Positions 2,591 to 64,000 of a stretch of DNA of 64,000 nucleotides are shown here, one piece after another. The stretch comes from Dendrobates tinctorius (taxonomy: Eukaryota), in NCBI RefSeq assembly GCF_039654945.1, contig NW_027361679.1, positions 90,334,001 through 90,398,000 of the forward strand, in the 5' to 3' direction. Numbering within the stretch: position 1 is the stretch's first letter; each line of letters starts with the position of its first letter. A program made the translations under genes and the position numbers. The notes under the pieces are model-generated. The model ran no database searches. It saw nothing but the letters and a program-made list of their open reading frames with translations, and was not told where the DNA came from.

Positions 2591-2665
2591 GAGTCTTTTG
2601 GGTTGATTGAGAACGTAGTTGTTGTTTAATAATAAAAACAATCCTCTCAAATACAACTTGCCTAA

Positions 2666-3576: not shown

Positions 3577-3863
3577 TAATAATTCTGCACACAGTGTACA
3601 CTCAAATGTCATCCGAGTGCAGTCCAATGTTTTCCACTGAATCATTGACTTGAGTGGCCGAGTGCAATCCGAATGTTGGATAAAACTCAGGCTTGCTGCA
3701 ATTTTTTTCCTTGGACAGTCTGTCCGAAGAAAAAAATCGCACACGTACAAGTCCCCATAGTATGAGTGCGATCTAATGTTTTGTTGGGTCACACTCTGAC
3801 TGAAAGTATGGGTGTGTACACAAGTTCTAAGGGTGTAAATGAACTTTCTTTTCTCTTCTTAAG

Positions 3864-3914
3864 GCAATTGTAAGAGGCGACCTTGATGTTCTCAAGGACT
3901 GGTGCTACGAAGCG
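3864..3914 (+). CDS. TIMM44: TIMM44 coding exon (AIVRGDLDVLKDWCYEA)
   Basis: Polypyrimidine tract plus AG at 3862-3863; GTGAGT donor at 3915; 51 nt, phase 0; peptide matches the Tim44 domain as I recall it (human AMISGELDILKDWCYEA). Confidence 0.95.
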
Positions 3915-4212
3915 GTGAGTTTGCATTTCTTTAGTTATCTTCCCATACAATTCATGTTTTATTTTTTTTATTCAGCTACATTTTTATTTATGATAACAAT
4001 TACATCATATACATGACATCAAGCAATTGTTCACATATAAACATGTTTTTATAAACAAAAACAAAACTCCTCCCTCCCTTTTCCCCCCCCTATCCCCCCT
4101 CCGAGATCCCTTCAGTGCCTTCCCCGTTCCTCGTCCAGTACTCTTTCCAACATCCATATATAGTTATGTAATGTGAATATCTTCCATATCCCAATACGTC
4201 CCTCCCACCCCT

Positions 4213-7200: not shown

Positions 7201-8495
7201 CCAAATAACTGTCCATCTCCTCTTGACCTTTATGTGTCTTTGAGGAGTATAACTCACTGTAAAACTGTTTAAATACTTCCAAAATTTGATCCCCCTGTGA
7301 AACCACGGTACCTTCCTTATTTTTAATTGCATATACATGGGAAGATTCCCGTTGTGCCGACGCCACCACTGAGAGCAGGTGCCCCACTTTTTCACCCTCC
7401 GCGTAGAATGCCTCATTCCGAAACGCCCGCCGTCTCTCCGCCTTACGGATATGAAGTTTATTAACTTCCAATTGGGCCACTTTCATGCGGGTCTGCGTAT
7501 CTGTATTACACTGCGCACCCAATGCCTCCTCCGCTGCCCTTAGTTCCTCCATCACTGCTTTGTCTTAATTTTGAGACTTAGTCTTATATCGAGATACTTC
7601 TCTGAATAAAATCCCTCTCAAAAAGGCCTTCATAGTATCCCAGACTATATGGCCCTCAGCACTGCCTTCATTTATCCTAAAAAATTCTCCCAATTCTTCT
7701 CCCACCTTTCCCATATCCAGCAACCATAACCAAAAGGGGTGAATTTTCCATCCCATTCCTGTCAACCTCCCTTGCCCTCCCAATTGTAGAGACACCTCCA
7801 GTGGACAATGATCCGATAGGACTCTGGGCAGATATTCCACTTCCTGTACCAAGTCATCCATTCCCTCATTTCCTAAAGCCACATCAATACGAGATAAAGA
7901 TCCGTATGTCGCCGAATAACATGAATAAGTATATTTCTCCATATTCCGAACTCTCCACAAATCTATCCAACCAATCTCCCTCATGTAGTTTCCAAAAGGT
8001 GTCACCTTCCCCCCCTTCCCACCCCCCCGTATGTTTACCTTTATCCCAATGATCATTTGCAATATTATTTACATCACCGATTACAAGCAGCGGGACTCCC
8101 ATCCATTTCCCAGATAAGTCCAGAATTTCCTGTATCTTTTTTCTAGAGAATGGTGGAGGGATATACAAGGACACAATACATAATAATCTATTCAAAATTC
8201 TGCATACAATAAACACGTATTGCCCGTCCCTATCTATTATAGCCTCCACTTCTTCGTATGGAGTAGAATTGTGGATTAACACAGACACTCCCCTTGCATA
8301 GGCCGAATACGTCGAGTGATAAGCCTTCCTCACCCATCTTTTTTGTAGCATTGCGACTTTATCCTCTACCAAGTGTGTCTCTTGGAGGCAAATCACTGAG
8401 GGCCTCAGCTTCAGATATTGTAAAATTGCAACCCGTTTTGAAGCATTAGCGAGACCCCTAACGTTCCAGCTTAGAATCTTAATTCTATCCCCCAT
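4213..8495 (-). pseudogene. LINE ORF2 (endonuclease + reverse transcriptase), disrupted
   Basis: Motifs ILSWNVRGL, CLQETHL, SRIDVAL, LSDHCP, YRPISLL, GTRQGCPLSP, LYADD, CPRC spread over five ORF pieces. Confidence 0.92.
4566..5082. mobile_element. Unclassified 517-bp insertion in L1 ORF2 (possibly Penelope-derived)
   Basis: Flanked by the 13-bp direct repeat GTGCATCATATCT (4553-4565, 5083-5095); splits the ORF2 C-terminus; A-rich, non-coding. Confidence 0.7.
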
Positions 8496-9870
8496 AATAT
8501 GTTGCAATCCCAAACATTAGACACGTTATAGGTAGAATCTCGATCCTCCCCCCCCCATCCCTCCCCCCCACCACTACCCCCTTTCTCAACTTCCCAACTG
8601 GAATAAACCCCCCTCCCAAAAAATTAGTTGTCTCCCACAGCCTTTAAGCTGATAAGAATTCTCTCTCCCTCTCTATTTGAGAACCAGTAGGGCGTTTTAA
8701 CAGCCTAACGATACAAGCTCTGTATTCCAACTACCCTCCCGTCCACATTACAATTCATGTTTTATAGAAGTGAATGTTCCCCAATTCACTGTGGTGTGCA
8801 TGTCTGGCATTAGTCAGTGCGTTACATAAGTAATAGAATCATGAAGGAGATATATACGTTATTATTATTTATTAGCGGCAGTGTTTCGGCTCCATAATAG
8901 AACCTCTTTTGAGAAAGCTGGAACTGAAACGTTGCCACATGGGCTAATAAAGTCTTTGACTTTGTTCACATCATTAAGAGTGCTGTTTATTTTTCTATCT
9001 ATATTATATTGGACTAAAAGGGTAAATGTCCAAAAAGCTACCCGTATTACAGTATTTTTGGCACAGCTTCGCTCTATTTTTCTGTGTGTACGTGTTTAAT
9101 GTGTGAATATTGGCCTAATTGCATGCATGTATACATGCCAGAAGATCTCTTTTCCATAAATGTGTTACTGCTTAACAGTATGCAGTGTACAGGACACCCC
9201 TTAAAAACCATGTTTCTTATGACTTTCCACTCTTTTGTTTTTATAGAATAAAATTAATTTCTATTTTTCTTAAGGGATGCCAATTTAAATGGCAACTGCG
9301 GCATTGATGATGGTTGACACCAGGAAGGGCTTGCCTCTGCCCCACAGATCCTTAGGCTGTCGATAACTACGGTAGATGGAGGCTCCAGCAAACTTAATAA
9401 ATTTTAATTTAAAAGAAAAGGTCTTTTGGAAAGAGATAATGAAAAAGACAGAAAAAAGATTGTCTCCTAAGGCCCAAAACACATCTAGTATTAGTGGTTA
9501 AAAATATCCTTTTCCTGGTCCCACAACTGCCCTGCAAACCTGTGTTTCTATAATAACAGTATACACTAGTTATTCGGACCCTGCAGTACTACTTTTCATC
9601 TGTTACCTTCATTTTACAAATATATATTTAGTAAATTAGTAAGAACTAGTGGACAGATGGATATCAATATGACTGCAGGGTCAGGCTGTCTCCTGGACCT
9701 TTATCCTGGAATGTCTTTATCTTTTATTGGGGAAAGTTGGCTAAGTAGTAAGGGATTTGTCTTCCCATAAGCTATGACAACCGTCAAGCCATCAAGTTCA
9801 ACCTCTCCTACTTCCACATCCATCTGGCCGAATTTGCATCAAAAATTTTTCTTTTTCTTTCCAAACTTAA

Positions 9871-20062: not shown

Positions 20063-20633
20063 CATAGAATCATAGAATCGTAGAGTTGGAAGGGACCTCC
20101 TGGGCCATCTAGTCCAACCCCCTGCTCAAAGCAGGATTCGCTAAATCATCCCAGTCAGATGTCTGTCCAGCCTCTGTTTAAAGACTTCCATTGAAGGAGA
20201 ACTCACCACTTCTTGTGGCAGCCTGTTCCACTCATTGATCACTCTAACTGTCAAAAAGTTTTTTCTAATATCTAATCTGTGTCTCCTCCCATTCAGTTTC
20301 ATCCCATTGCTTCTAGTCTTTCCTTGTGCAAATGAGAATAAAGTTGATCCTTCTACAATGTGACAGCCCTTTAGATATTTGTAGACAGCTATTAAGTCTC
20401 CTCTCAGTCTTCTCTTTTGCAAACTAAACATTCCCAAATCCTGCAACCTTTCCTCATAAGACAGGGTTTGCAGACCGGTCACCATTCTGGTCGCTCTTTT
20501 CTGAACTTGCTCCAGTTTGTTGATGTCTTTTTTTAAAATGTGGTGCCCAAAACTGGACACAATATTCCAGATGAGGTCTGACCAAAGAGGAGTAGAGGGA
20601 AATAATGACTTCACGTGATCTAGACTGTATGCT
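20063..20633 (-). mobile_element. CR1 LINE 3' fragment
   Basis: Near-identical to 1893-2590; includes [14 protein letters not shown] and the tandem tail. Confidence 0.92.
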
Positions 20634-20639
20634 GTATGT

Positions 20640-21260
20640 GGGGCCCCTCAGGGTCTGATTTGGTGGGTGGGGCCCCTCAGGATCCGATTTGGTGGTCTGG
20701 GCTCCTCAGGTATTGAATTGGTGGATGGGATCACTCAGGGTCTGATTTGGTGAGCGGGGCCCCTCAGGGTCTGATTTGGTGAGCGGGGCCCCTCGGGGTC
20801 TGATTTGGTGAGCGGGGCCCCTCGGGGTCTGATTTGGTGGGCGGGGCCCCTCGGGGTCCGATTTGGTGGGCGGGGCCCCTCGGGGTCCGATTTGGTGGGC
20901 AGGGTCACTCTAGGTCCGATTTAGTGGGCTGGGCCCCTCAGGGTCCAATTTTGTGGGCGTGGTCTTTCCGGGTCCAAGTTTGTGGGCGTGGTCTTTCCGG
21001 GTCCAATTTTGTGGGCGTGGCCCCTCAGGGTCCGATTTGGTGGGCGGGGCCCACTCTGGGTCCGATTTGGTGGGCGGGGCCCACTCTGGGTCCGATTTGG
21101 TGGGCGGGGCCCACTCTGGGTCCGATTTGGTGGGCGGGGCCCACTCTGGGTCCGATTTGGTGGGCGGGGCCCACTCTGGGTCCGATTTGGTGGGCGGGGC
21201 CCACTCTGGGTCCGATTTGGAGGCCGGGGCCCACTCTGGGTCCGATTTGGAGGCCAGGGT
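20640..21260. repeat. 29-30-bp G-rich minisatellite inside the HINE
   Basis: About seven near-perfect copies of TCCGATTTGGTGGGCGGGGCCCACTCTGGG at 21031-21250, diverged copies upstream. Confidence 0.9.
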
Positions 21261-23909: not shown

Positions 23910-26900
23910 GTGGTTATCCGCTGGAGTGGCAGCCTGTTACAGTAGCTCCTTCTTTGCTCTCCTTTTTTCTATTTTTCCTTTCTCTTTTTTTTATTGTTAC
24001 TCCAAAGGGACATTGCACTATGGAAAGCCATAAGAGGACCTGGACCTTTGATGGACTTTTTACCTTGTTTTTACTTGGATCTATTGTGTTGGGAAATCCA
24101 GGAACTGAACAAGACCCTATTGTCTACTCCAGAGAAGCTATACTGCTGCTTAGGGACACAGCAAGGCAGCATGCTGCTAATAGACCAGAGGACATTCCAC
24201 CAGAAATAAGGAGGACTAAAAAGAGGTTGCAGAGCTGGAGCCCTCAGGAAAGCTAGAAGAAGGCGCTATAGACCTGCTCTTCCGTCCGTCATTATGGGCA
24301 ATGTGAGATCACTCGGGAATAAGATGGACGAACTGTCGGTGCTGACCAGACATCATCGGGAATTAAGGGAGAGCAGCATGTTGCTGTTTACAGAGACCTG
24401 GCTCACCGAAGGTACTCCCGACACTGTTGTCTCGTTGGATGGCTTTAAACTCATTCGCTCGGACAGGACAAGGGAGAGCGGTAAGAGGAAAGGCGGAGGG
24501 CTGGCGATATTTGTGAGTGATAGATGGTGTGACTCTAGGCACATCGTGGTCAAAGAGCAAACATGCTGTAAGGACATTGAGCTATTAGCTGTGGGCATGA
24601 GACCTTTTTATTTACCGAGGGAACTATCGCATGTAATCATGATAGCTGCATATGTCCCCCCTTCTGTGAATGCTGATGCTGCCACTGAGGTCCTACAATC
24701 CACAGTGAGCATGATGCAGTCCCTTCACCCCCAAGCACTCCTTCTGGTTTCGGGAGACTTCAATCATGTGTCTCCAGCATCCATACTACCCAGTTGCACA
24801 CAGTATGTTACCTGCCTCACTAGAGACAACAAAACATTGGACTTGTCCTTTGCCAATGTGAGAGGGGCATATGCCTCGGCAGCCCTACCGCCCCTTGGAA
24901 GATCGGATCACAACCTAGTGCACCTCCAACCCGTGTACAAGCCACTTGTACAGAGAGAACCTGCTGTCACTCGCACAGTGAGGATATGGACTGAGGAGAG
25001 TGATGATGCTCTGAGACTGCTTTGAAACAACCACTTGGGAAGTGCTGCAAGATTCCTATGGTGATGACATGGAAGGTCTCACACACTGTATAACGGACTA
25101 CATTAATTTCTGTGTAGACAACACGGTACCCACAAAAGTAGTGAGGTGCTTCTCTAACAACAAACCATGGATCAGCCCCGGAATAAAGGCTCTTCTCAAA
25201 GAGAAGTTGGCCTTCAGATCAGGTGACAAGGGCAGGCTGAGAGAGGTTCAGAAGGATCTGAAGTATCTAATCAGGCAGGGAAAGGCTAATTATAAGAGAA
25301 GGATTGAACTGAAATTGTCACAGAAAAGGATCCATGAAGTCTGGGAGGGTCTAAAGTCTATATCTGGGCATAGACAGACAGACTGTCTCCAGGTTGGTTG
25401 TAGATAAAGAGGGGCTTAATGAACTTAATCTATTCTTTAACAGATTTAATCACACACTGGCTGCTCCTGCCCCTGCATACCATTCACACCTCTCTGCTAC
25501 AATAACTTCACCCCCTGCTGCAACTTGTCAACTGAGCCAGGGTCTGTTCTTCACAAGTACCCAGGTTGCAAAAGAACTGAATAAGATCAAAGTTTTGAAG
25601 GCTGCAGGTCCTGACGGCATCAGTGCAAGGCTAATCAAGACCTGCGGGCACCAGCTGAGTGAGATCATTACATATCTGTTCAATATGAGCCTGAGAATGG
25701 GTATAGTACCACAACTGTGGAAATTATCGTGTGTGGTACCAGTTCCGAAGAAACCTTATCCGAAAGACCTTAATGACTATAGACCTGTAGCATTGACATC
25801 ACACCTGATGAAGGTACTAGAGAGATTGGTTCTCACACGTCTCTGTCCTCTAGTGAGCTCAGATATGGACCCTCTCCAGTTTGCCTACAGGCCGGGCATT
25901 GGTGTGGATGATGCCATTATCCACCTTCTAGATAGGACTCTCTCTCACCTGGAGAAACCTGGGAACACTGTGAGAATAATGTTCTTCGATTTCTCTAGTG
26001 CTTTTAACACCATACAGCCAGGTCTACTGAGAGACAAGCTGGGCCTTGTTGGTGTGGACCTCCAACTCTCCTCCTGGATCCTTAACTACCTCACGAACCG
26101 ACCTCAGTTTGTAAAGGTTCGGGACAGTGTGTCAGACACAGTGATCTGCAATACAGGGGCACCTCAAGGTACAGTTCTTGCCCCTTTTCTCTTCACACTG
26201 TACACTGCAGATTTTAGGTGCAACTCATCTAGCTGCTACTTGCAGAAGTATTTTGATGACTCTGCAATAGTAGGCCTCATCACAGGAGGAGATGAAAGAG
26301 AGTACAGAGATACTAACCAAGCTTTTGTGGAGTGGTGTCAGAGGAACCACCTTAGGATTAATTCCGGGAAGACCAAGGAATTGGTGGTGGACTTTCGCAA
26401 GGGCAAAAATCCACCAGTAGTGGTGAACATTCAGGGAAATGACATTGAGATAGTCGACACCTATAAGTACCTTGGTGTGATCCTCAATAATAAGCTTGAC
26501 TGGGCCCATCACTTGGATGTAGTGTACAGGAAGGGCCAAAGCAGGCTTTATCTGCTTAGACGGCTGAGAGCCTTCGGATTTAGAGGGGCACTCCTTGCAT
26601 CCTTCTTCAACTCTGTTGTGGCATCAGTCATCTTCTTTGGTGTGGCGTGCTGGGGTAGTGGCATATCAACCAGGGACAGGAATAGGCTGGACAAACTGAT
26701 TAGAAGGGCCAGCTCTGTCCTGGGATGCCCCCTTGACCCAGTTCAGGAAGTAGGCGACAGGAGGATACTGGCCAAGGTGAGCTACATGGTGCAGAATGAT
26801 TCCCATCCCATGCATGAGACCGTGACAAAGATGTGCAGTACTGTCAGTGACCGGCTACTTCATCCTAAATGTGAGAGGGAGCGCTATCGAAAGTCCTTCC

Positions 26901-27147
26901 TTCCTGCTGCAGTTAGGCTGTATAACCAGCACTGTCCAAAACGGAGAACGACCCAAACAGAGAACTGATAGATCCAAAGTTGTGACAGTCCGGTTACATT
27001 TTTTTTTCTTTTTTTCTTCGTATATGTACCTACCTACTGTCAATGTAATGCCTTTATGAATCTGTATCTGTACTTGTTCCTGCCTTGCTGCTGTAATGCT
27101 CTGAATTTCCCCAAGGTGGGACAATTAAAGGATTATCTTATCTTATC
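23910..27147 (+). mobile_element. Rex1/Babar-type LINE, near full length (5' boundary approximate)
   Basis: APE (GNVRSL, FTETWL, GDFNH, SDHN) and RT (YRPVALTS, DFSSAFNTI, GAPQGTVLAP, YFDD); tail GGATTATCTTATCTTATC. Confidence 0.85.
24019..26968 (+). pseudogene. Rex1-type EN-RT ORF with frameshifts
   Basis: Pieces 23849-24256, 24294-25025, 25042-25407 and 25394-26968. Confidence 0.88.
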
Positions 27148-49799: not shown

Positions 49800-50201
49800 A
49801 TGGTTCCATTTTCTTGCGTAGGGTGTCTTGTATTGAAATTTGCTGCAATGACCCGGGTACTGCGTTCACCAGACATCAACACAATTTCTATCCCCTCCTC
49901 ACATGTTAACCTCTGCAACATGTCAATGACTAAGCAAAGAAACTTGTAAATAACTCATTAAAGAATAAAGTTATGTTAAAACCAAGCACACCATTGTTTT
50001 TCTTGTTAAATTCTCAATAAGTTTGATTTGTCACATGACCCTGTTCCCATTGGAAATAGTAAGATCCAAAATGGTCGACTTCAAAATGGCCACCATGGTC
50101 ACCACCCATCTTGAAAAGTTTTTCCCCTCCCATAAACTAATGTGCCACAAACAGGAAGTTGATGTCACCAACCATTCCCATTTTATTTAGGTGTATCCAT
50201 A
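49800..50201 (-). mobile_element. Tc1/mariner-like remnant
   Basis: N-terminal HTH-like peptide MLQRLTCEEGIEIVLMSGERSTRVIAANFNTRHP; termini not resolved. Confidence 0.45.
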
Positions 50202-50557
50202 TACAGTTAGGTCCATATATATTTGGACAGATACATTTTTCTAATTTTGGTTCTAGACATTGCCACAATGAATTTCAAACAAAACAGTTCAGATGCAGTT
50301 GAAGTTCAGACTTTCAGCTTTCATGTGAGGGTATCCACATTAAAACTGGATGAAGGGTTTAGGAGTTTCAGCTCCTTAACATGTGCCAACCTGTTTTTAA
50401 AGGGACCAAAAGTAATTGGACAATTGACTCCAAGGCTATTTCATGGACAGGTGTGGGCAATCCCTTCTTTATGTCATTCTCAATTAAGCAGATAAAAGGC
50501 CTGGAGTTGATTTGAGGTGTGGTGCTTGCATTTGGAAGGTTTTGCTGTGAAGGAAAC

Positions 50558-52416
50558 ATGCGATCGAAGGAGCTCTCCATGCAGGTGAAACAAGCCATCC
50601 TTAAGCTGCAAAAACCCATCTGTTGTGAGCTCATTTTCGGGTTTGCCTCTGGCTTCTGGTGAGGGTTATGGAGCTGGCTGTGCTGACAGAGGAGTAGTGA
50701 GTTCTCTATCTGGACTCCCTCTGTTGGTGAAGGGAGGTAATGAAGCTGATCTAAATGGCAGAGACCGGCCACCTGAGGAAGAGGACTGCGATTGAATATC
50801 AGGAGTTTCTGATTGGATTTAAGGCAGCCGACTCCCTAGTTTTTTGCTGGTGATTTTTCCTGACTGTGGCTCCTGGTTTCCAGTTTGGTTTCTGCCTTCC
50901 TAAAGCTAAGTTTTCTCTGCTATTGTTCATATGAGTTTTTGTCTGGTTTACTTAGTTTTTGTGTTCAGCCAGCCCTGGCTGGGACTGGGCTGAATCCCCA
51001 TTTTTGTCTCTGATCAGTGGATCTCTTTTGCTCTGTCTTCAGAATATACCTGAGTGCTGATATAGTGATTTCTATCAGATGTGTTGGACATTCTTTTTGG
51101 CAGGGTTTTTTGCGTGATTGCAGACAGCAGCTTTTCTTTCCTGTCCTTTCTAGTTAGCGAGGGCCCCATCGTTTGCTCAGCCTTTCTACTTGTGTCCGTG
51201 TTTTCATCGACAATACATGTTGGGGGCTGTCTATTGCTTTGGGGTCTGCTCTGGGGCAGTTTAGATTTTCCCTTTCTTTAGGCTTATTTAGTTCTCTGGC
51301 TGTGACGAGGCGTCTAGAACCACCGTAGGCACGCTCCACGGCTACTGCTAGTTGTTGTGGATAGGATCAGGGGTCTGCAATCCGCTAGTTACCAACCTCT
51401 CCGGTTTTCTGGGCTTAGCTTGCTTTTTGGTTTTTCCTCCTCGGTGACTCATTCATAACACCCATCCGAGGAACTGCTACATTAGGAGTGGCAAAATCTA
51501 CAGTTTGGTACATCCTGAGAAAGAAAGCACTGGTGAACTCATCAATGCAAAAAGACCTGGGCACTTATGGAAGACAACAGTGGTGGATGATCGCAGAATA
51601 GTCTCCATGGTGAAGAGAAACCCCTTCACAACAGTCAACCAAGTGAACAACACTGTCCAGGAGGTAGGCGTATCAATATCCAAATCTACCATAAAGAGAA
51701 GACTGCATGAAAGTAAATACAGAGGGTTCACTGCATGGTGCAAGCCACTCATAAGCATCAAGAATCAAAAGGCTAGACTGGACTTTGCTAAAAAAACATC
51801 TAAAAAAGCCAGCACAGTTCTGGAAGAACATTCTTTGGACAGATGAAACCAAGATCAACCTCTACCAGAATGATGGAAAGAGAAAAGTATGGCGAAGGCG
51901 TGGTACAGCTCATGATCCAAAGCATACCACGTTATCTGTAAAACACGGCGGAGGCAATGTGATGGCTTAGGCATGCATGGCTGCCAGTGGCACTGGGTCA
52001 CTAGTGTTTATCGATGATGTAACACAGGACAGAAGCAGCCGAATGAATTCTGAGGTATTCAGAGCCATATTGTGTGCTCAGATCCAGCCAAACTGATTGT
52101 CCATCTGTAGTATGAAACGACGACCAATGACCCAAAACATAAAGCCAAAGCAACCCAGGAGTTTATTAAAGCAAAGAAGTTGAATATTCTTGAATGGCCA
52201 AGTCAGTCACCTGATCTCAACCCAATTGAGCATGCATTTCACTTGTTAAAGACTAAACTTCAGACAGAAAGGCCCACAAACAAACAGCAACTGAAAACCA
52301 CTGCAGTGAAGGCCTGGCAGAGCATCAAAAAGGAGGAAACACAGCATCTAGTGATGTCCATGAGTTCAAGACTTCAGGCAGTCATTGCCAACAAAGGGTT
52401 TTCAACCAAGTTCTAG
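50558..52416 (+). pseudogene. Tc1 transposase, disrupted by an LTR and frameshifts
   Basis: MRSKELSMQVKQAILKL start; ILWTDETK, VKHGGG and WPSQSPDLNPIEH motifs. Confidence 0.9.
50621..51460. mobile_element. Solo LTR (840 bp)
   Basis: TGTTGTGA ... TCATAACA termini; 6-bp duplication CCCATC at 50615-50620 and 51461-51466. Confidence 0.85.
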
Positions 52417-53142
52417 AAATGAACATTTTATTTACAATTAATCTGTCCCATTACTTTTGGTCCCTTTAAAAACAGGGTGGCACATGTTAAGGAGCTGAAA
52501 CTCCTAAACCCTTCATCCAATTTTAATGTGGAAACCCTCAAATGAAAGCTGAAAGTCTGAACTTCAACTGCATGTAAGTTGATTTTGTTTAAAATTTATT
52601 GTGGTAATGTCTAGAACCAAAATTAGAAAAATGTCTCTGTCCAAATATATATGGACCTAACTGTATGTTATCATGGCCACAAGGCTTGATAATATGCTTA
52701 GTGGGCCGACAAGTCTGGAGACACCAACGCTGGGGGACCTGACAGGTTCCCTTTAAGCATCTTCCAGAAAAACTTAAATACAAATACCCCAAACACTGGA
52801 AATAATGAAGGGCTCAACTCACTGAACAATACAAAATAAATAGAATCTCATGCAAGTACTATTAAGCACAACAAGAGATCAAAAAATAGGTATTAGACCT
52901 ACCGGTAATGATGTTTCCAGGAGTCCATCCTGACAGCACTATGGAGGACGTCCTCCTCCTCCTTACAGGGACAGGAAAGCACACGAGAGGTTAAAAGGCC
53001 ATGTCCCACCCCCTTTCCCTCAGTGATTTGACAAGTACCACAAGGTGGATGATGCTAGTAACGGTTTAATGAAACAATCATATTACAGCATATGACATAA
53101 CATAATACAACATAGTATAACATAAGAGGGAGGGAACTACCC

Positions 53143-53229
53143 GTGCTGTCAGGATGGACTCCTGGAAACATCATTACCGGTAGGTCTAATACCTATTTTC
53201 CAGGACGTCCACCTGACAGCACTATGGAG
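53143..53229. other. DIRS internal complementary region (ICR)
   Basis: First half is the reverse complement of about 52883-52939, second half of 58158-58190; they meet at CCTATTTTCCAGG (circle junction). Confidence 0.93.
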
Positions 53230-53246
53230 AGTACCAAAGCACCTCC

Positions 53247-56078
53247 TCAGGGTGGGATTACTGCTTGGAGAACTTTTCTCCCGAATGCGGTTTGTTGGCC
53301 AGCTAACACATCTAGTTTGTAGTGTTTGCAGAATGTATTAAGACTAGCCCAGGTTGCCGCTCGACAAATTTGATCAACTGACGCCCCCGCCCGCTCGGCC
53401 CATGAGGCCGATACCGCCCTTGTAGAGTGGGCTTTTAAGGAATCAGGCGGGCTGGCGCCTTCAGCCTGGTAGGCGTCCGAGATTACTGAGGTAATCCAAC
53501 GCGCTATGGACGCCTTAGAGGCCCTCTTCCCTTTATTCCTACCCCCAAAGAGAACGAACAGGTTCGGGTCGATACGCCAACTATTGGTGGCCTCTAGGTA
53601 CTCTATAACTGCGCGCCTCACGTCTAGCGAGTGGAGCCGCCGCTCCTTCTCATTTCGGGGATTATCACAGAAAGAGGGTAACACTACCTCCTGATTCAGA
53701 TTTCTTGTAGAGGCTACCTTCGGGGTAAATGCCGGGTCTAACCTTAGGATTATACTATCCTCTCTTATCTGGAGGTATGGATCCTTAGTGGATAGGGCCT
53801 GGATCTCCCCTATTCTTTTGGCCGTGGTAATGGCTACTAGAAAGGCCGTTTTACGAGTGAGAGCAGGGATGGTTATCTTCTCACTAAGGGCGAAAGTGTC
53901 CGATCAGAGGAACCGAAGTACCAGGCCCAGGTCCCATGGCGGGGTGAGCTGCCTAATCGTGGGACGCAGGCGCTGTGTGGCTTTTATAAACCTTATCACC
54001 CAGGGATGTGCAGCTAACTGATAATCAAAGAAGGCGCTCAAAGCTGAAACCTGGACTTTTAGAGTGCTGGGCTTGAGGCCTTTATTAAAACCTGCCTGCA
54101 GGAACCCTAGTATGTTAGGGAGATCCGGGGTACCTGCCACGAGCTCGGACCTGCCACCCTCCAGACAAAATCTCCTCCATATCTTCCGATAAATTGCCGA
54201 CGTCACCGGCTTCCTGCTGGCCTGTAGGGTGGATATGACCTGCTCCGACAATCCTTTTGCCTTCAGGATGTCCCTCTCAGTATCCAGGCCGATAGATGCA
54301 GTCTTGCTGGGTCCGGGTGGTGGATCGGGCCCTGGTGGATGATGTTCTCCCACAAGGGCAGCTCGACTGGATCTTCTACTGCCATGGCTCCCAGAAGGGA
54401 AAACCAGCTTCTCCTCGGCCAGTATGGCACTATCAATATCACTCTTGCGTGGTCCTCGCGTATCTTTCTGAGCACTGCCGGTATGAGGGCCGGTGGTGGG
54501 AACGCATAAGAGAGGGATTCTCCCCAAGTCTGACTCAGGGCGTCTACGCCCTCTGGATGGTCCATTGGATTTAGGGAGTAGAATCTGGGAACCTTCGAGT
54601 TCTTGCGGCTTGCGAAGAGATCTATACTGGGGTTCCCCCAGCGCTGACAAAGCTGGTTGAAGACCTCTATGTTCAATTCCCACTCTGTCGGGTGGATCTG
54701 TTGTCTGCTCAGGTAGTCCGCCACTTCGTTTTGGGAACCCTCTAGATGTACCGCGGTCACGGATCGAACTGTCCGTTCTGCCCACGTGAATATCTTTTCC
54801 GCCAGTGCCTGTAGTGGTTGATGTCTGGTTCCTCCTTGGTGTTTCAGGAATGCCACTGTCGTTGTATTGTCGGATAGAATGCGAACATGACGACTCTTTA
54901 GTACCGACCGGTTTCTCCGCAACGCTTCCCAGACCGCGAAGAGTTCCTTGAAATTGGAGGATCTGGCCTTGATGCTTGCTGGCCACTTCCCCTGGAAGAT
55001 CTTCCCTTCTATGTGGGCTCCCCATCCCCACGCACTTGCGTCTGTGGTGACTACCACGTATGGAGAGGTTGTCCAATGCACGCCCACCTGAAGGTTCCTG
55101 GCCTGTAACCACCAGCGAAGGGACTCCTTTGCTCGTCCTGAGAGTCTTAGGGGTTTGTCTAGCGACGCCTGACTCCTGTCCCACCTCGCGAGAATTTCTC
55201 TTTGTAACAACCGCGAGTGGAATTGGGCCCAACGGACACACTGGATGCATGCCGTCATGAGGCCCAGGACCTCCATTGCTTCCCTTATGGAGCATTGACG
55301 CTTCAACAGACCTCTGGTTCTGGCCTGAATGGACTTCTGCTTCTGCTCGGGTAGCCAGGATATTCTGTCGGCTGAGTCTAGGAGGACTCCCAGGAATACC
55401 TTTCTGGTGTTTGGTGTGAGGTCCGACTTCTCCCAGTTGATCACCCAGCCCAGGAACTCCATCACAGTAGTTGTTCGGATCCTGTCTCGGATGAGCGCTT
55501 CTTTGGATCTTGCCACCAGTAAGAAGTCGTCCAGGTACGGCACAATCACAATACCCTGATCTCTCAGGTAGGCCACCACCTCTACCACCAGTTTCGTAAA
55601 GATTCTGGGAGCTGAGGCCAGCCCGAATGGAAGACCTTGGAACTGGAAATGGCAGGTCCGGGCTGGTGAACTGATCGCCAACCTTAGTAGGCTTTGGGAT
55701 GAGGGATGAATAGGAACCTGATAATATGCCTTTTTTAGGTCTAGGGTGCACATAACTGCGTCCCTGTCTATCAGAGGAATCGCGGATCGGATAGATTCCA
55801 TCCGGAACCTCCTGTATCTGACCCAAGCATTTAGTGGCTTCAGGTTTATGATGGTGCGGGTCTCGCCGGATTTCTTTGTAATTGCAAACAGGGAAGAGTA
55901 GTGACCTTTCCCTCTTTCTGATGCTGGAACTGGTATTATGACCCCCGAGTCTAACATGTCCTGAAGATCCGACCACATTGCGGAGTCCTCCAGGACGACA
56001 GTGGGGGCAATATATCTGTCGGGGGGAGGAGAATAGAGCTCTATCCTGTAACCTTCTCTGATGGTTCTGAGGACCCAC
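53247..56078 (-). pseudogene. DIRS ORF3 tyrosine recombinase with one in-frame TGA at 53904-53906
   Basis: Same frame across the stop (VLRFL*SDTF...AITTAKRIGE...AHSTR...KHY); catalytic R, HxxR and Y present. Confidence 0.9.
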
Positions 56079-56377
56079 TGACTGTTGGTGACTCGCGACC
56101 AGTTTGCTGCAAAGTGGCGAAGTCTCCCCCCAATGCCTATGGCGTCATTGTCTCCTCGACCTAGATGTCGATGCAAATGGGGGACCTCTGTTCTTCCCAC
56201 TTTGGCTGAAGGAGCCTCTGTAGGAGCCTCTATTAGAACTCGCCCGGCCCCTAAACTCTGACTGTCCTCTGAAGAAGGAGCCTCTCCGAAAGGACTGGGA
56301 CCGCCTGGGTTTTTCTTCCGGGAATCCCTTATTTTTATCAGACACCAGCTCAAGGATATTATCCAGGGCTGGACCAA
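54263..56377 (-). CDS. DIRS reverse transcriptase, RNase H and methyltransferase-like ORF
   Basis: LPFGLASAP, YLDD, TTDAS, SDNTT, ADYLSR, IDLFAS and YAFPP motifs; open for 704 codons; true start uncertain. Confidence 0.93.
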   Translation of the reverse strand: MVQPWIISLSWCLIKIRDSRKKNPGGPSPFGEAPSSEDSQSLGAGRVLIEAPTEAPSAKVGRTEVPHLHRHLGRGDNDAIGIGGRLRHFAANWSRVTNSQWVLRTIREGYRIELYSPPPDRYIAPTVVLEDSAMWSDLQDMLDSGVIIPVPASERGKGHYSSLFAITKKSGETRTIINLKPLNAWVRYRRFRMESIRSAIPLIDRDAVMCTLDLKKAYYQVPIHPSSQSLLRLAISSPARTCHFQFQGLPFGLASAPRIFTKLVVEVVAYLRDQGIVIVPYLDDFLLVARSKEALIRDRIRTTTVMEFLGWVINWEKSDLTPNTRKVFLGVLLDSADRISWLPEQKQKSIQARTRGLLKRQCSIREAMEVLGLMTACIQCVRWAQFHSRLLQREILARWDRSQASLDKPLRLSGRAKESLRWWLQARNLQVGVHWTTSPYVVVTTDASAWGWGAHIEGKIFQGKWPASIKARSSNFKELFAVWEALRRNRSVLKSRHVRILSDNTTTVAFLKHQGGTRHQPLQALAEKIFTWAERTVRSVTAVHLEGSQNEVADYLSRQQIHPTEWELNIEVFNQLCQRWGNPSIDLFASRKNSKVPRFYSLNPMDHPEGVDALSQTWGESLSYAFPPPALIPAVLRKIREDHARVILIVPYWPRRSWFSLLGAMAVEDPVELPLWENIIHQGPIHHPDPARLHLSAWILRGTS

Positions 56378-57455
56378 ACACCCTCAGACCCGAGAAAGGG
56401 ATGGCACATAACTTGGCCTTAGAAGGGTTATCCCCCGACCAGGATCTAAGCCAGACTGCTCTCCGGGCCGCATTAGAGAGGGAGCTGTTTCTGGCCGCAA
56501 ACCTAACAGATTCCGCCGACGTATCCGACAGGAACGCCGTGGCTGATTTCAAAAGAGGAAGAGATGCTAGTATCTCTGACCTCGGGGTCTTGTTGGTTAG
56601 GTTTTCCTCCAACTGCCCCAACCACAGGAACATAGACCTGGCCACCGAGGTGGCTGCTATGTTGGCTCTAATCAGGGCCGCCGACGTCTCCCATGTTCTT
56701 TTTAACAAGACGTCCGCCTTTCTATCCATTGGGTCTCGAAGACCGGATGAGTCCTCGGCTGGGATAGCCGATTTCTTCGTAACCTTGGCCACCGGGACGT
56801 CGATCTTAGGGACTTCTTCCCACGCCCGAGTTTCCTCGGGATCGAAGGGCAGTCTATTTTTAAAGATTCGGGAGAGTGTCAACCGACGCTCTGCTTCCTT
56901 CCACTCCTCCTGGATCATTGCTTTGATGTGCTCGCTCACAGGGAACACCACCTGTTTGCGGGACACCAGTCCTCCAAACATTAAGTCCTGTCTGGACTGT
57001 GGCTTAGGGACTTCTTCCATCTGCATGGTATTTCTGACCGCGTGTACCAGCTCGTCCGTATCCTCCAGTCTGAACAGATACTTTCTGTTCTGTTCCTGAC
57101 TGTCCCCCAGGATCTCGCCTTCTTCCTCCTGATCTGAGTTCCGGAAATCGGATTCCTCGCTAGGGCTCGCCTCTGATACTGGGACTGGTTCCCACCTTGG
57201 ACGCTTGCGACCTGGCCCAGGGCTGGGGGATCGACGCCGGGACGTAGAGGCCTGAATCTCTTCCCTTATCAGCGACCTCATTTCGGAAAGCAGAGATGGC
57301 TGTTCCTCGCCTATGACCCTGGAGGTACAGGGACCACATAGGGTCTTGCTATAGGTGTCTGGCAGCTTTACTCTGCACACCGGACATCTGACTGATTTGG
57401 CGGTGGCTTTCGCCGGGTCCTTCCCCGAGGGGGACTCAGCCGGGGTTCCCTTTTC
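56145..57455 (-). CDS. DIRS gag-like ORF1, main exon
   Basis: CxxC...CxxC N-terminus; RDPMDRK and ARRAVWLRSW motifs; open to TGA at 56145. Confidence 0.85.
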   Translation of the reverse strand, partial: EKGTPAESPSGKDPAKATAKSVRCPVCRVKLPDTYSKTLCGPCTSRVIGEEQPSLLSEMRSLIREEIQASTSRRRSPSPGPGRKRPRWEPVPVSEASPSEESDFRNSDQEEEGEILGDSQEQNRKYLFRLEDTDELVHAVRNTMQMEEVPKPQSRQDLMFGGLVSRKQVVFPVSEHIKAMIQEEWKEAERRLTLSRIFKNRLPFDPEETRAWEEVPKIDVPVAKVTKKSAIPAEDSSGLRDPMDRKADVLLKRTWETSAALIRANIAATSVARSMFLWLGQLEENLTNKTPRSEILASLPLLKSATAFLSDTSAESVRFAARNSSLSNAARRAVWLRSWSGDNPSKAKLCAIPFSGLRVFGPALDNILELVSDKNKGFPEEKPRRSQSFRRGSFFRGQSEFRGRASSNRGSYRGSFSQSGKNRGPPFASTSRSRRQ

Positions 57456-57534
57456 CTGATAATATAAGGGGCACCTCATCAGATCTGGGCTGTGGGGACG
57501 GGTGGGGAGGGTGGTCTGCGCTATGCGCACTTAC

Positions 57535-57564
57535 CCCTCCACCAGATGCAGTGTTGCCTTCCAT
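57535..57564 (-). CDS. Predicted first coding exon of DIRS gag (MEGNTASGGG)
   Basis: GGGGATGG start context; GGG|GTAAGT donor; joins in frame to the CAG|GAA acceptor at 57455. Confidence 0.65.
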
Positions 57565-58400
57565 CCCCTGGCGTCCGATGCAGTCACACAGTCTGGAACC
57601 ACCTGTGACGCTGGAGAACGCTCTGGTCCAGGAGCGCGCGCGCCCTGGATTTGAAACCGGCGTCTGACGTCACCGGATGTGACGCTGGTAAGCCGCGCCT
57701 CCACTTCCTGCCGGGCATCTGCGCGCGACCGCGCTCGGCGCGAGCAGGGAGCCTTTCCTGCTATGACGCTCCGGCCTCCACTGCCCAGCGTCAGCGCGTC
57801 CTGCGGGTACTCGGCCCGCCGCCCCACTTCTATCGGTGCCCGCATGGCCAGCCGCCTGCGGGGAGCCGACCCGTCCTGGAGCCGAGAGCCCCCCCACCGG
57901 GAGGAACGGCTCCCTCCAGGAGCGCCGTCCTGCTCCTGGCCTTTGGAGCCGAGGGACTCCCCACCGGGAAGTTTCGGCCCCGGGACCTCTTGACAGGGGA
58001 AGGATTGGACCGGCCGCACGATCCCCTGGGTCCCTCCGGTAAGCTCTCGCGTGTCCCTCCGTGCAGGGACAGGAAAAACACTGAGGGAAAGGGGGTGGGA
58101 CATGGCCTTTTAACCTCTCGTGTGCTTTCCTGTCCCTGTAAGGAGGAGGAGGACGTCCTCCATAGTGCTGTCAGGTGGACGTCCTGGAAATAGAGTTTTT
58201 CAAAGCTCAAATATAATTGTGTTTATGTCTGCTGCAACCTATACTAGCACTCATGCTCTGTTTATCATTATTTCAATAAATTATATTTGAGCTTTGAAAA
58301 ACTCTATTTTTGATCTCTTGTTATGCTTAATAGTTCTTGCATGAGATTCTATTGATTTTCCAGAAAAACTTGCCTGCTATGCTGCCTGAAACACATATTA

Positions 58401-58898
58401 GGCTGGTTTCACATTAGCGCTTTTTAAGCGCACGCACGGCCGGGGGTGGCTCCGCCCCCGAGCCGGCTCTCTGCCAGGCGTGCCCGCCCCTTGCTTGTAG
58501 CGCCGCCTCCTAGCGCACAGCGGCGCCTGCGATCGGCGCACCCTATCTTTAGCATAGGGTGCGCAGATCGTGCGCAGGCCGTGCGCTAGTTGCGCTTTGA
58601 CCTGCGCTGCGCACTTTTGACGGTGCGCCGTGCGCGCCAAAATCCGAAAAGTTCGATTTTGGCGCGCACGGCGCACCGTCAAAAGTGCGCAGCGCAGGTC
58701 AAAGCGCAACTAGCGCACGGCCTGCGCACGATCTGCGCACCCTATGCTAAAGATAGGGTGCGCCGATCGCAGGCGCCGCTGTGCGCTAGGAGGCGGCGCT
58801 ACAAGCAAGGGGCGGGCACGCCTGGCAGAGAGCCGGCTCGGGGGCGGAGCCACCCCCGGCCGTGCGTGCGCTTAAAAAGCGCTAATGTGAAACCAGCC
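58401..58898. mobile_element. Fold-back Harbinger-type MITE (palindrome)
   Basis: 244-bp arms with no mismatch seen, 10-nt spacer, TTA duplication, GGCTGGTTTCACA termini. Confidence 0.92.
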
Positions 58899-59199
58899 TT
58901 ACCTGCACACACCCTGAGGAGGCGCAATCCCAGAAACAGTCTTATAACTGCTTCAAAAAGTGCAGCAGGCCCATCCTTTAACTACAACGACAATGTCGCA
59001 AGTGTGCGAACGTCTGCCACAGGTATAGAGGATACTCGTGAAAAAAAACTTAAGTAGCAAGCTACATATTACTGGCAGTCATTGTAGCAAACTACATATT
59101 ACTGGCAGTCATTGCAGCAAACTACATGTGAACGCTGCCCAATATCAGAGGAGTACCGGCCAGTACAGGCAGAGCCCGGCTTTCAGGGCCCTCACAACA

Positions 59200-62100
59200 C
59201 ATCAGGCTGGTCTGGGCCAGAGGGGGTCGTTCCCAGCACTGGGTCCTCACAACACCGTGACAGGCTGGTCGTGGCCTGAGGGGTCGCCCTCAGCACTGGG
59301 TCCTCACAACACCCTGATAGGCTGGTCCGGGCCTGAAGTGTTGCTCCCAGCACTGGGTCCTCACAACACCCTGACAGGCTGGTCGTGGCCTGAGGGGCCT
59401 CCCCCAGCACTGGGTCCTCACAACAACCTGACAGGCTGGTCCAGGCCTGAGGGGTTACCCCCAGCACTGTGTCCCCACAACACCCTGACAGGCTGGTCGT
59501 GGCCGGAGGGGTTGCCCCCAGCACTGGGTCCTCACAACACCCTGACAGGCTGGTCGTGGCCGGAGGGGATGCCCCCAGCACTGGGTCCTCACAGCACCCT
59601 GACAGGCTTGTCGTGGCCTGACGGGTCACCCCCAGCACTGGGTCCTCACAACACCTTGACAGGCTGGTCATAGCCTGAGGGAGTCAACCCCCGCACTGGG
59701 TCCTCACAACACCCTGATAGGCTGGTCCGGGCCTGAAGTGTTGCTCTCAGCACCCTGACATTGGCATTGTAGAAGGATCAACTTTATTCTCATTTGCACA
59801 AGGAAAGACTAGAAGCAATGGGATGAAACTGAATGAGAAGAGACACAGATTAGATATTAGAAAAAACTTTTTGACAGAGTGATCAATGAGTGGAACAGGC
59901 TGCCACGAGAAGTGGTGAGTTCTCCTTCAATGGAAGTCTTCAAACAGAGGCTGGACAGACATCTAACTGGGATGATTTAGCGAATCCTGCTTTAAGCAGG
60001 GGGTTGGACCAGATGGCCCAGGAGGTCCCTTCCAACTCTATGATTCTATGATTCTATGGTCCAGGCCTGAGGGTCACCCCCAGCACTGGGTCCTCACAAC
60101 ACCCTGACGGGCTGGTGCAGGCCTAAGGGGTCACCCCCAGCACTAGGTTCTCACAACATCCTGACAGGCTGGTCCAGGCCTGAAGGAATTGCTCCCAGCA
60201 CTGGGTCATCACAACACCCTAACAGGCTGGTCCAGGCCCGAGGGGTCGCCTCCAGCACTGGGTCCTAACAGCACCCTGACAGGCTGGTTGTGGCCTGAGG
60301 GGGTTGCCCCAGCACTGGATCCTCACAACACCCTGACTGGCTGGTCCAGGCCCGAGGGGTCGCCCCCAGCACTGGGTCCTCACAACACCCTGACAGGCTG
60401 GTCCGGGCCTGAGGGGGTCACCCCCAGCACTGGGTCCTCACAACACCCTGACTGGCTGGTCCATGCCTGAGGGGGTCACCCCCAGCACTGGGTCCTCACA
60501 ACACCCTGACTGGCTGGTCCATGCCTGAGGGGTCACCCCCAGCACTGGGTCCTCACAACACCCTGACAGGCTGGTCCGGGCCTGAGGGGGTCACCCCCAG
60601 CACTGGGTCCTCACAACACCCTGACTGGCTGGTCCATGCCTGAGGGGTCACCCCCAGCACTGGGTCCTCACAACACCCTGACTGGCTGGTCCAGGCCTGA
60701 GGGGTCGCCCCCAGCACTGGGTCCTCACAACACCCTGACAGGCTGATCCGGGCCTGAGTGGTCACTCCCAGCACTGGGTCCTCACAGCACCCTGACAGGC
60801 TGATCCGGGCCTAAGTGGTCACTCCCAGCACTGGGTCCTCACAGCACCCTGACAGGTTGGTCCGGGCCTGAGAGGGTCACCCCCAGCACTGGGTCCTCAC
60901 AACACCCTGACAGGCTGATCCGGGCCTGAGTGGTCACTCCCAGCACTGGGTCCTCACAGCACCCTGACAGGCTGATCCGGGCCTAAGTGGTCACTCCCAG
61001 CACTGGGTCCTCACAGCACCCTGACAGGTTGGTCCGGGCCTGAGAGGGTCACCCCCAGCACTGGGTCCTCACAACACCCTGACTAGCTGGTCCATGCCTG
61101 AGGGATCGCCCCCAACACTGGGTCCTCACAGCACCCTGACAGGTTGGTCCAGGCCTGAGGGATCGCCCCCAACACTGGGTCCTCACAGCACCCTGACAGG
61201 TTGGTCCAGGCCTGAGGGATCGCCCCCAGCACTGGGTCCTCACAGCACCCTGACAGGCTGATCCGGGCCTAAGTGGTCACTCCCAGCACTGGGTCCTCAC
61301 AGCACCCTGACAGGTTGGTCCGGGCCTGAGAGGGTCACCCCCAGCACTGGGTCCTCACAACACCCTGACTAGCTGGTCCATGCCTGAGGGATCGCCCCCA
61401 ACACTGGGTCCTCACAGCACCCTGACAGGTTGGTCCAGGCCTGAGGGATCGCCCCCAACACTGGGTCCTCACAGCACCCTGACAGGTTGGTCCAGGCCTG
61501 AGGGATCGCCCCCAGCACTGGGTCCTCACAGCACCCTGACAGGTTGGTCTGGGCCTGAGGGGTCACCCCCAGCACTGGGTCCTCACAACACCCTGACAGG
61601 CTGATCCGGGCCTGAGTGGTCACTCCCAGCACTGGGTCCTCACAGCACCCTGACAGGCTGATCCGGGCCTGAGTGGTCACTCTCAGCACTGGGTCCTCAC
61701 AGCACCCTGACAGGTTGGTCCGGGCCTGAGGGGTCACTCCCAGCACCCTGACAGGCTGGCCGGGCCTGAGGGATCGCCCCCAGCACTGGGTCCTCATAGC
61801 ACCCTGACAGGCTGGCCGGGCTTAAGAGTTCGCCCCCAACACTGGGTCCTCACAGCACCCTGACAGGTTGGTCCGGGCCTGAGGAGGTCACCCCCAGCAC
61901 TGGGTCCTCACAACACCCTGACTCGCTGGTCCATGCCTGAGGGATTGCCCCCAGCACTGGGTCCTCACAGCACCCTGACAGGTTGGTCCGGGCCTGAGGG
62001 GGTCACCCCCAACACTGGGTCCTCACAACACCCTGACTGGCTGGTCCAGGCCTGAGGGATCGCCCCCAGCACTGGGTCCTCACAGCACAGCACCCTGACA

Positions 62101-64000
62101 GGTTGGTCCGGGCCTGAGGGATCACTTTCAGCGCTGGGTCCTCACAGCACCCTGACAGGCTGGCCGGGCTTAAGAGTTTGCCCCCAACACTGGGTCCTCA
62201 CAGCACCCTGACAGGTTGGTCCAGGCCTGAGGCATCGCCCCCAGCACTGGGTCCTCACAGCACCCTGACAGGTTGGTCCGGGCCTGAGGGGTCACCCCCA
62301 GCACTGGGTCCTCACAGCACCCTGACAGGTTGGTCCGGGCCTGAGGGGGTCACCCCCAACACTGGGTCCTCACAACACCCTGACAGGTTGGTCCGGGCCT
62401 GAGGGGGTCACCCCCAGCACTGGGTCTTCACAACACCCTGACTCGCTGGTCCATGCCTGAGGGATCGCCCCCAGCACTGGGTCCTCACAGCACCCTGACA
62501 GGCTGGCCGGGCTTAAGAGTTCGCCCCCAACACTGGGTTATCACAGCACCCTGACAGGTTGGGCCGGGCCTGAGGGGTCACCCCCAGCACTGGGTCCTCA
62601 CAACACCCTGACAGGCTGATCCGGGCCTGAGTGGTCACTCCCAGCACTGGGTCCTCACAGCACCCTGACAGGCTGATCCGGGCCTAAGTGGTCACTCCCA
62701 GCACTGGGTCCTCACAGCACCCTGACAGGTTGGTCCGGGCCTGAGAGGGTCACCCCCAGCACTGGGTCCTCACAACACCCTGACTCGCTGGTCCATGCCT
62801 GAGGGATCGCCCCCAACACTGGGTCCTCACAGCACCCTGACAGGTTGGTCCAGGCCTGAGGGATCGCCCCCAACACTGGGTCCTCACAGCACCCTGACAG
62901 GTTGGTCCAGGCCTGAGGGATCGCCCCCAGCACTGGGTCCTCACAGCACCCTGACAGGTTGGTCTGGGCCTGAGGGGTCACCCCCAGCACTGGGTCCTCA
63001 CAAAACCCTGACAGGCTGATCCGGGCCTGAGTGGTCACTCCCAGCACTGGGTCCTCACAGCACCCTGACAGGCTGATCCGGGCCTGAGTGGTCACTCTCA
63101 GCACTGGGTCCTCACAGCACCCTGACAGGTTGGTCCGGGCCTGAGGGGTCACTCCCAGCACTGGGTCCTCACAGCACCCTGACAGGCTGGCCGGGCCTGA
63201 GGGATCGCCACCAGCACTGGGTCCTCATAGCACCCTGACAGGCTGGCCGGGCTTAAGAGTTCGCCCCCAACACTGGGTCCTCACAGCACCCTGACAGGTT
63301 GGTCCGGGCCTGAGGAGGTCACCCCCAGCACTGGGTCCTCACAACACCCTGACTCGCTGGTCCATGCCTGAGGGATTGCCCCCAGCACTGGGTCCTCACA
63401 GCACCCTGACAGGTTGGTCCGGGCCTGAGGGGGTCACCCCCAACACTGGGTCCTCACAACACCCTGACTGGCTGGTCCAGGCCTGAGGGATCGCCCCCAG
63501 CACTGGGTCCTCACAGCACCCTGACAGGTTGGTCCGGGCCTGAGGGATCACTCCCAGCGCTGGGTCCTCACAGCACCCCGACAGGTTGGTCCAGGCCTGA
63601 GGCATCGCCCCCAGCACTGGGTCCTCACAGCACCCTGACCGGTTGGTCCGGGCCTGAGGGGGTCACCCCCAACACTGGGTCCTCACAACACCCTGACAGG
63701 TTGGTCCGGGCCTGAGGGGGTCACCCCCAGCACTGGGTCTTCACAACACCCTGACTCGCTGGTCCATGCCTGAGGGATCGCCCCCAGCACTGGGTCCTCA
63801 CAGCACCCTGACAGGCTGGCCGGGCTTAAGAGTTCGCCCCCAACACTGGGTCCTCACAGCACCCTGACAGGTTGGGCCGGGCCTGAGGGGTCACCCCCAG
63901 CACTGGGTCCTCACAGCACCCTGGCAGGCTGATCCGGGCCTGAGTGGTCACTCCCAGCACTGGGTCCTCACAGCACCCTGACAGGCTGATCCGGGCCTGA
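59200..64000. repeat. 57-58-bp GC-rich satellite array, runs off the window
   Basis: Unit CCAGCACTGGGTCCTCACAGCACCCTGACAGGTTGGTCCGGGCCTGAGGGGTCACCC; ORFs show a 19-aa period. Confidence 0.97.
59765..60058 (+). mobile_element. CR1 3' fragment inserted in the satellite
   Basis: Reverse complement of 20063-20360; ends CTATGATTCTATGATTCTATG. Confidence 0.92.

Follow-up and report, generated by a model that had tools for sequence, protein, structure and literature searches.

Does the gag gene of a frog DIRS retrotransposon begin with a spliceosomal intron, and how would such an intron persist in an element that is copied through RNA? The question was raised by the first-pass annotation of the window, that is, the whole 64,000-nt stretch of Dendrobates tinctorius DNA analysed here, in which a 79-nt segment at the gag start had the appearance of an intron. 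We regard this segment as a genuine spliceosomal intron of this DIRS family, a prediction that we hold with a probability of about 0.8. The best reading of the locus is that a U2-type intron would be spliced in vivo to feed the start of gag. As this intron is present in a retroelement, the RNA to be copied would have to stay unspliced. Expression of overlapping ORFs by DIRS elements and separation of message from template are largely untested outside Dictyostelium, and the defined junction 57535>57455 makes splicing of this element testable in existing frog RNA-seq.

Structure and insertion of the host element

The element is a complete DIRS1-like tyrosine-recombinase retrotransposon on the minus strand (about 58190-52883; Table 1), and every DIRS1 feature tested was found in it. 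The inverted terminal repeats (ITRs) form a non-identical pair of 116 nt with T runs at both element ends, in agreement with the repeats of about 120 bp and the TTT ends of DIRS1-like elements, and their differences are confined to the region of the outer end and a single inner base. The 33 nt and 57 nt of the internal complementary region (ICR) are 100% complementary to the two termini. ORF1 carries the LAP2alpha domain and ORF2 the reverse transcriptase (RT), RNase H and methylase domains, as judged from Pfam matches above the cut-off (PF11560 and PF00078) or just below it (PF17917 and PF05869). The recombinase ORF overlapping pol was matched by PF00589 below the cut-off (E 2.5e-05), and contains the R, HxxR and Y motifs. 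The same layout is given for anuran DIRS1-like elements in passages of Gazolla et al. (PMC9210276), where the Xenopus families DIRS_XT/XL have three ORFs (ORF1 with LAP2alpha, RT/RNase H/methylase, and YR), ITRs of about 120 bp, an ICR and TTT ends. Named homologs were all anuran, the closest being a Dendrobates tinctorius model at 88%.

The first-pass annotation described the element as young. The near identity of the ITRs agrees with this description, but the recombinase frame carries an in-frame TGA at 53906-53904, which is read through in the four relatives that span the site (of 14 local alignments). Because of this stop, the present copy is probably not autonomous. Within the 64-kb window, blastn and tblastn matched the element alone, and no further copies were detected.

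The element splits one arm of a long MITE-like inverted repeat, with flanks at 58191-58359 and 52833-52885. The intact arm represents the empty site, and CTATTT is common to this empty site and the element end. With the empty site taken from the other arm of the repeat, the T counts at the two junctions (3+6) equal those of circle junction plus empty site (4+5). The T counts fit insertion by recombination at a short shared core, with no target-site duplication.

The surrounding DNA is rich in repeats. A perfect 245-bp inverted repeat with a 10-nt loop (58400-58899) adjoins the MITE-like flank, and a GC-rich 57-bp satellite of about 84 copies with higher-order periods occupies 59135-64000; arrays of 29-bp, 70-bp and 387-bp units lie elsewhere in the window. 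A decayed Tc1-like DNA transposon with long inverted ends was found at 50201-52666 and another at about 600-1500. LINE-type remnants were recognized from ORF translations at 2081-8516, 20141-20647 and 24210-26968, and presumably resemble CR1-like, L1/Tx1-like and Rex/Babar-like elements. Among ORFs of at least 130 aa in the window, no host exon was evident.

Table 1. Positions of the element, its repeats and ORFs, and the features predicted around the gag start
Feature	Position	Strand	Remarks
DIRS1-like element	52883..58190	-	Full-length; right end within T run 52881-52886
Left ITR	58075..58190	-	Starts TTT
Promoter-like motif cluster (candidate)	57635..57712	-	In CpG peak; ETS-like 57709, palindromic CRE 57672, TTCAAA 57655, GC repeat
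Putative exon 1, coding part	57535..57564	-	Strong-context ATG and ten codons
RNA hairpin (weakly predicted)	57503..57544	-	End of exon 1 pairs with intron; donor GUAAG in internal loop
Putative GT-AG intron	57456..57534	-	79 nt, phase 0
5' splice site (putative)	57529..57534	-	GTAAGT; its TAA terminates upstream gag-frame ORF (ATGs 58103, 57845)
Branch-like motif	57477..57482	-	CTGAT, A at 57479; overlaps weak in-frame ATG 57479
Pyrimidine tract and CAG acceptor (putative)	57456..57473	-	
gag exon 2 (putative)	56145..57455	-	436 codons; CxxC...CxxC finger from residue 24; LAP2alpha domain
pol ORF	54263..56383	-	RT, RNase H, Dam-like methylase; no ATG before conserved GGRL motif
Third ORF	53247..56144	-	gag frame, overlaps pol; tyrosine recombinase at end; in-frame TGA 53906-53904
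ICR	53143..53229	-	33 nt match left terminus, 57 nt right terminus
Right ITR (52914-53029) and right-terminal extension	52883..53029	-	TTT end

Putative splice signals at the start of gag

ATG 57564 sits in GGGGATGG, with G at both -3 and +4, and opens the 30-nt coding part of a putative exon 1, encoding MEGNTASGGG. The exon ends in GGG, followed by the donor GTAAGT with its first intron base at 57534. The 79-nt segment ends in CCCCTTATATTATCAG at 57456, and exon 2 begins with EKGT at 57455. Joining of the two exons in phase 0 gives a 446-aa Gag with zero internal stops; on unspliced RNA, ATG 57564 leads to a 42-aa peptide that ends at 57436, out of frame with gag. The A of the branch-like CTGAT at 57479 is 24 nt from the 3' splice site, and pyrimidines occupy 12 of the 16 bases preceding the AG. 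Splicing to the nearer CAGs, at 57489 or 57484, would remove introns of 45 or 50 nt, respectively, and leave the join out of frame. The GT...AG ends, a consensus donor, a branch site 18-40 nt upstream of the acceptor, a pyrimidine tract and a plausible length, as expected of a U2 spliceosomal intron, were all found on scoring with approximate frequency matrices. The ATG, ten codons, donor, 79-nt length, CTGAT, acceptor and phase-0 join all lie where the first-pass annotation had placed them, and the stop-to-stop gag ORF starts, as it said, at a GTG inside the segment (57530). The in-frame TAA that it noted in the segment is present, but in the gag frame and not in that of ATG 57564.

The donor ranks first among the 286 GT sites of the element and is the sole GTAAGT on its sense strand, and the acceptor ranks eighth among 459 AG sites. 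When the 688-nt leader was shuffled 3000 times with dinucleotides preserved, GTAAGT alone appeared in 108 shuffles, and ATG, donor and acceptor in frame at the observed strength in none. A relaxed arrangement, with each site weaker by 3 bits and any ATG accepted, was seen in 195 shuffles (6.5%). The splice matrices were approximate, and the thresholds were chosen after seeing the site, so that the true chance lies between the strict and the relaxed values.

The relaxed value lends some weight to the reading that the splice-like signals arose by chance and that Gag is made on unspliced RNA from ATG 57479, or from GTG 57530, with no functional intron. The first-pass annotation had raised ATG 57479 as a caveat. 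This ATG is indeed in frame and would give a 444-aa Gag opening with RCPLYYQ, with the finger at residue 32, inside the range of relatives; seemingly intronless relatives also exist. The start-to-finger distance does not discriminate between the two starts, being 32 for ATG 57479 and 34 for ATG 57564 against a median of 30. The context of ATG 57479 is, however, weak (C at -3, A at +4), and the codon owes its presence largely to the branch motif, the branch-point A serving as its first base. The peptide from ATG 57479 scored below all of 47 homologous Gag N-termini, whereas 26 of the 47 scored at or below the exon-1 peptide; these 47 are gene models with a Met 10-60 residues before the zinc finger, taken from 179 fetched relatives, and the composition used for scoring was drawn from the same proteins. 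The element's strongest donor and a strong ATG also stand exactly in register, and we consider the absence of a functional intron unlikely.

Gag starts in relatives and in earlier reports

The comparative evidence consists of protein gene models, which by construction favour canonical splice sites. P0156 and P0008, members of a related family with 86% identity, differ near the gag start by 25 extra residues in P0156. This insert follows a shared five-residue start, begins with G-E-C and ends with S-T before a shared E, as the read-through of a 75-nt phase-1 GTGAGT...ACAG intron with a consensus donor would, the DNA being deduced from the protein. Such an intron would be of phase 1 and would precede the finger by about 35 residues; in the present element, the distance is 23 residues and the phase is 0.

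Among 55 hand-picked finger-bearing proteins compared, P0081, P0135 and P0169 share 90-97% identity from a point 11 residues ahead of the finger onward. Their upstream parts are unrelated, and those of P0081 and P0135 contain host domains. The Cdc23 match of P0035 extends to residue 140, and its Gag portion opens with the following residue, E. At the level of proteins, the relatives favour an acceptor immediately ahead of the zinc finger, and the comparison gives indirect evidence of gag-start splice sites in further families, with differing positions and phases. Chimeric models also fuse Gag elsewhere, as in P0036, P0021 and P0034. P0110, P0094 and P0040 read from leader motifs into gag without a break, from which it follows that intronless DIRS families probably exist. 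The start is a Met inside the finger in 8 of the 179 relatives. If the intron is real, the annotation of gag would be corrected; many database models begin inside or after the zinc finger.

From the same family as the present element, only P0001 (88%) and P0177 (68%) were found, both starting downstream of the finger. The Gag N-terminus of this family was absent from the 35 matches among 6374 candidates, from the short candidates (0 of 20, residues 1-150), and from the 8 matches among 7431 long candidates, with the best 150 of 1185 profile matches considered. A pattern search of genome contigs for DNA of relatives gave 57 pattern matches and 0 confirmed relatives, and plasmids gave no match. 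In four Eleutherodactylus coqui models (P0012, P0020, P0026 and P0175), gag and pol are seemingly fused in one frame, unlike in this element.

An acceptor of this kind was anticipated from host genes. Abascal et al. (PMC4495291) described mammalian LAP2alpha (TMPO) and ZNF451-L2a as single large 3' exons of about 500 codons derived from DIRS gag, and concluded that a splice acceptor had come with the element; they did not identify a native intron. The native gag acceptor before the zinc finger could be the one inferred behind both, and would, if real, provide a concrete source for these two mammalian DIRS-derived exons. The TMPO junction is probably in phase 1, and its phase may differ from the phase 0 of the present junction.

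Introns in tyrosine-recombinase retrotransposons have probably been reported before, in 2004. Goodwin and Poulter (2004, Mol Biol Evol) are said to have named spliceosomal introns as one surprising trait of the DIRS and Ngaro elements. Reviews of YR retrotransposons were reportedly given by Poulter and Goodwin (2005) and Poulter and Butler (2015), and introns are reportedly drawn in ORF1 of some vertebrate elements. Our literature search, with the 2004 paper and the 2015 review outside its reach, gave no report of native DIRS introns. Both "intron" and "splic" occur 0 times in the main text of PMC9210276, "intron" is absent from PMC3266345, PMC6681497, PMC3783388 and bioRxiv 10.64898/2026.05.21.726589, and DIRS introns are not mentioned in passages of PMC9341512, PMC5718144, PMC13465315 and PMC3212892.

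Spliced gag RNA itself is already known in Copia elements. The reports on Arabidopsis EVD (PMC5580714) and barley BARE1 (PMC3735527) describe a spliced subgenomic gag RNA, and in BARE, RNAs that start at different sites form separate pools (PMC3735527). As in EVD and BARE1, Gag of the present element would come from spliced RNA and the unspliced RNA would be copied. The Copia intron, however, lies downstream, around protease, and truncates the gag-pol ORF, whereas the intron predicted here follows codon 10, its splicing would create the Gag reading frame, and the element has no protease. An intron near protease with early termination, giving a gag-only RNA, was not found here; this intron may work like that of the Copia gag RNA, but the element is not a member of that group.

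Retroviruses and env-bearing gypsy elements likewise keep splice sites in the genome and need unspliced RNA. Gag and Pol of retroviruses are made from unspliced RNA, and splicing serves env and accessory genes. The "retrovirus-like control switch" of the first-pass annotation therefore has the direction reversed. Translation of retroviral Gag from unspliced RNA is described in PMC10309623; here, unspliced RNA puts ATG 57564 out of the gag frame, and Copia is the nearer model.

Proposed expression of gag, pol and the recombinase

Gag would be translated from spliced mRNA that takes its start codon from a very short coding first exon, and unspliced full-length RNA would be the template for reverse transcription. 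Since the spliced form still encodes full Gag, coding does not protect the intron. It would be kept only if the copied RNA is unspliced or if intronless copies fail, and we propose that it survives copying because unspliced full-length RNA is the template. We consider this pair of RNA pools likely. The first-pass annotation had likewise proposed an unspliced genome and a spliced gag mRNA, for which the sequence signals, the frame, the rarity of the arrangement and the analogy to DIRS-1 give support, whereas splicing in vivo and the pools themselves are what we infer.

Alternatively, a real intron might be removed freely from the copied RNA as well, with intronless copies arising constantly and coexisting, so that it would not be a regulatory switch and would persist through copies that escape splicing or as the holder of a needed cis-element. 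An intronless copy would still encode the complete 446-aa Gag, and P0008 might represent a genomic copy that has no intron, instead of a spliced model. According to the report on Dictyostelium DIRS-1 (PMC7192593), reporter introns are normally removed during retrotransposition, but engineered introns placed between the left repeat and ORF1 were partly retained in cDNA. Steady one-way loss should, however, clear the intron from a family quickly unless this loss is selected against, and intron-like signals are seen in several families nonetheless. Free splicing of the copied RNA appears unlikely, and separate pools remain the preferred reading.

The most likely way of separating the pools, at about even odds, would be an internal promoter. 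The gag mRNA would start at a CpG-rich promoter 60-150 nt upstream of ATG 57564 and would be without the left repeat needed for replication; its donor would be near the cap, and efficient splicing is proposed to follow from this position. The genomic RNA would start at the left repeat, contain upstream ORFs running across ATG 57564 in another frame, and be spliced poorly, perhaps with the aid of the donor hairpin or of bound element proteins. The upstream ATGs 58103 and 57845 indeed overlap ATG 57564 out of frame, spliced or not. Because of these ATGs in any repeat-initiated RNA, and of the peak of CpG and promoter-like motifs 70-150 nt upstream of ATG 57564 (Table 1), a short, internally initiated and spliced gag mRNA is favoured. 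TTCAAA in this cluster is taken by us to be a reverse CHR-like motif. Traces of the same motifs were found in leader translations of four relatives (P0040, P0012, P0110 and P0094), but they do not place the start site, since motifs in retroelement leaders can also drive initiation upstream. A coding role of the 190-codon upstream ORF was rejected: it had no Pfam match, and its resemblance to P0034 and P0008 is spread over several frames, which indicates conserved DNA.

With the same intron and a different origin of the RNA pools, a single transcript from the left repeat could be incompletely spliced. Its unspliced fraction would be packaged and serve as the copied RNA, and ribosomes would get past the upstream ORFs to Gag by leaky scanning or reinitiation. 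The left repeat of DIRS-1 is the proposed promoter, with RNA starting near its end, and 5'-proximal reporter introns were partly retained in its cDNA (PMC7192593). The donor hairpin also suits this model, with a z-score of -3.1 in a window chosen after seeing the hairpin. A GC-rich leader of 500-600 nt with up to four upstream ATGs, two of them overlapping ATG 57564, would however translate Gag poorly, and the motif cluster and CpG peak lie just upstream of exon 1. A single transcript is a real possibility, though short of an even one.

As for the hairpin, the first five bases of the donor are unpaired in it, and it falls outside the 12 most stable of 190 leader windows. Folds of the region are overall not unusual (z -1.28 for the 191-nt region, and -0.90 and -1.06). 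Comparison of 52000-59500 with structured RNA families gave 5 matches at E<=0.1, all far below the gathering scores.

Extended to other elements, the internal-promoter model would have many vertebrate DIRS families making Gag from internally initiated, spliced RNA with a tiny first exon, while genomic RNA escapes splicing and the donor may feed the recombinase frame. Insertions in introns would then act as Gag exon traps, the source of the LAP2alpha and ZNF451-L2a acceptor. We offer this generalization tentatively, as rather doubtful in its full extent.

Use of the same donor for pol or YR was also suggested by the first-pass annotation. A splice from the donor to pol was rejected as a candidate: the best of the 8 phase-0 acceptors in the pol frame before GGRL has GAG, which departs from the consensus, and the second best reaches 3.4 bits. 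The claim for pol is unsupported without a good phase-0 acceptor. For YR, such a splice may be possible, as phase-0 acceptors of about 8.3 bits are present at 56015 and 54221.

The recombinase frame directly follows the gag stop and stays open across pol (53904-56144, minus strand) with 0 stops, compared with a mean of 17.7 and a minimum of 7 in 2000 synonymous recodings. This stop-free frame is probably maintained by selection or by a structural constraint. DIRS elements are known for their long overlapping ORFs. At 56150-56144 (minus strand), gag ends in CAA TGA C, and pol crosses the stop in the +1 frame (N-D) with no earlier ATG. Q ends 16 of 46 homologous gag sequences, and ND or SD occurs just before the GGRL-type motif in 7 of 16 gag-pol read-through models. 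The gag-stop region suggests either a +1 frameshift for pol, presumably comparable to that of antizyme, or stop read-through into the recombinase frame.

Two further observations concern alternative starts and acceptors. At about 54275 (minus strand), shortly upstream of the recombinase domain, a CTG with a favourable context occupies the position at which some relatives, such as P0028 and P0176, appear to have Met, and is a possible alternative start. Of all acceptor-like sites in the element, the two that score highest are in the left repeat, at 58135 and 58080 (minus strand). P0034 joins a host glucosidase to the left-repeat region of a relative, and the repeat may also trap host transcripts.
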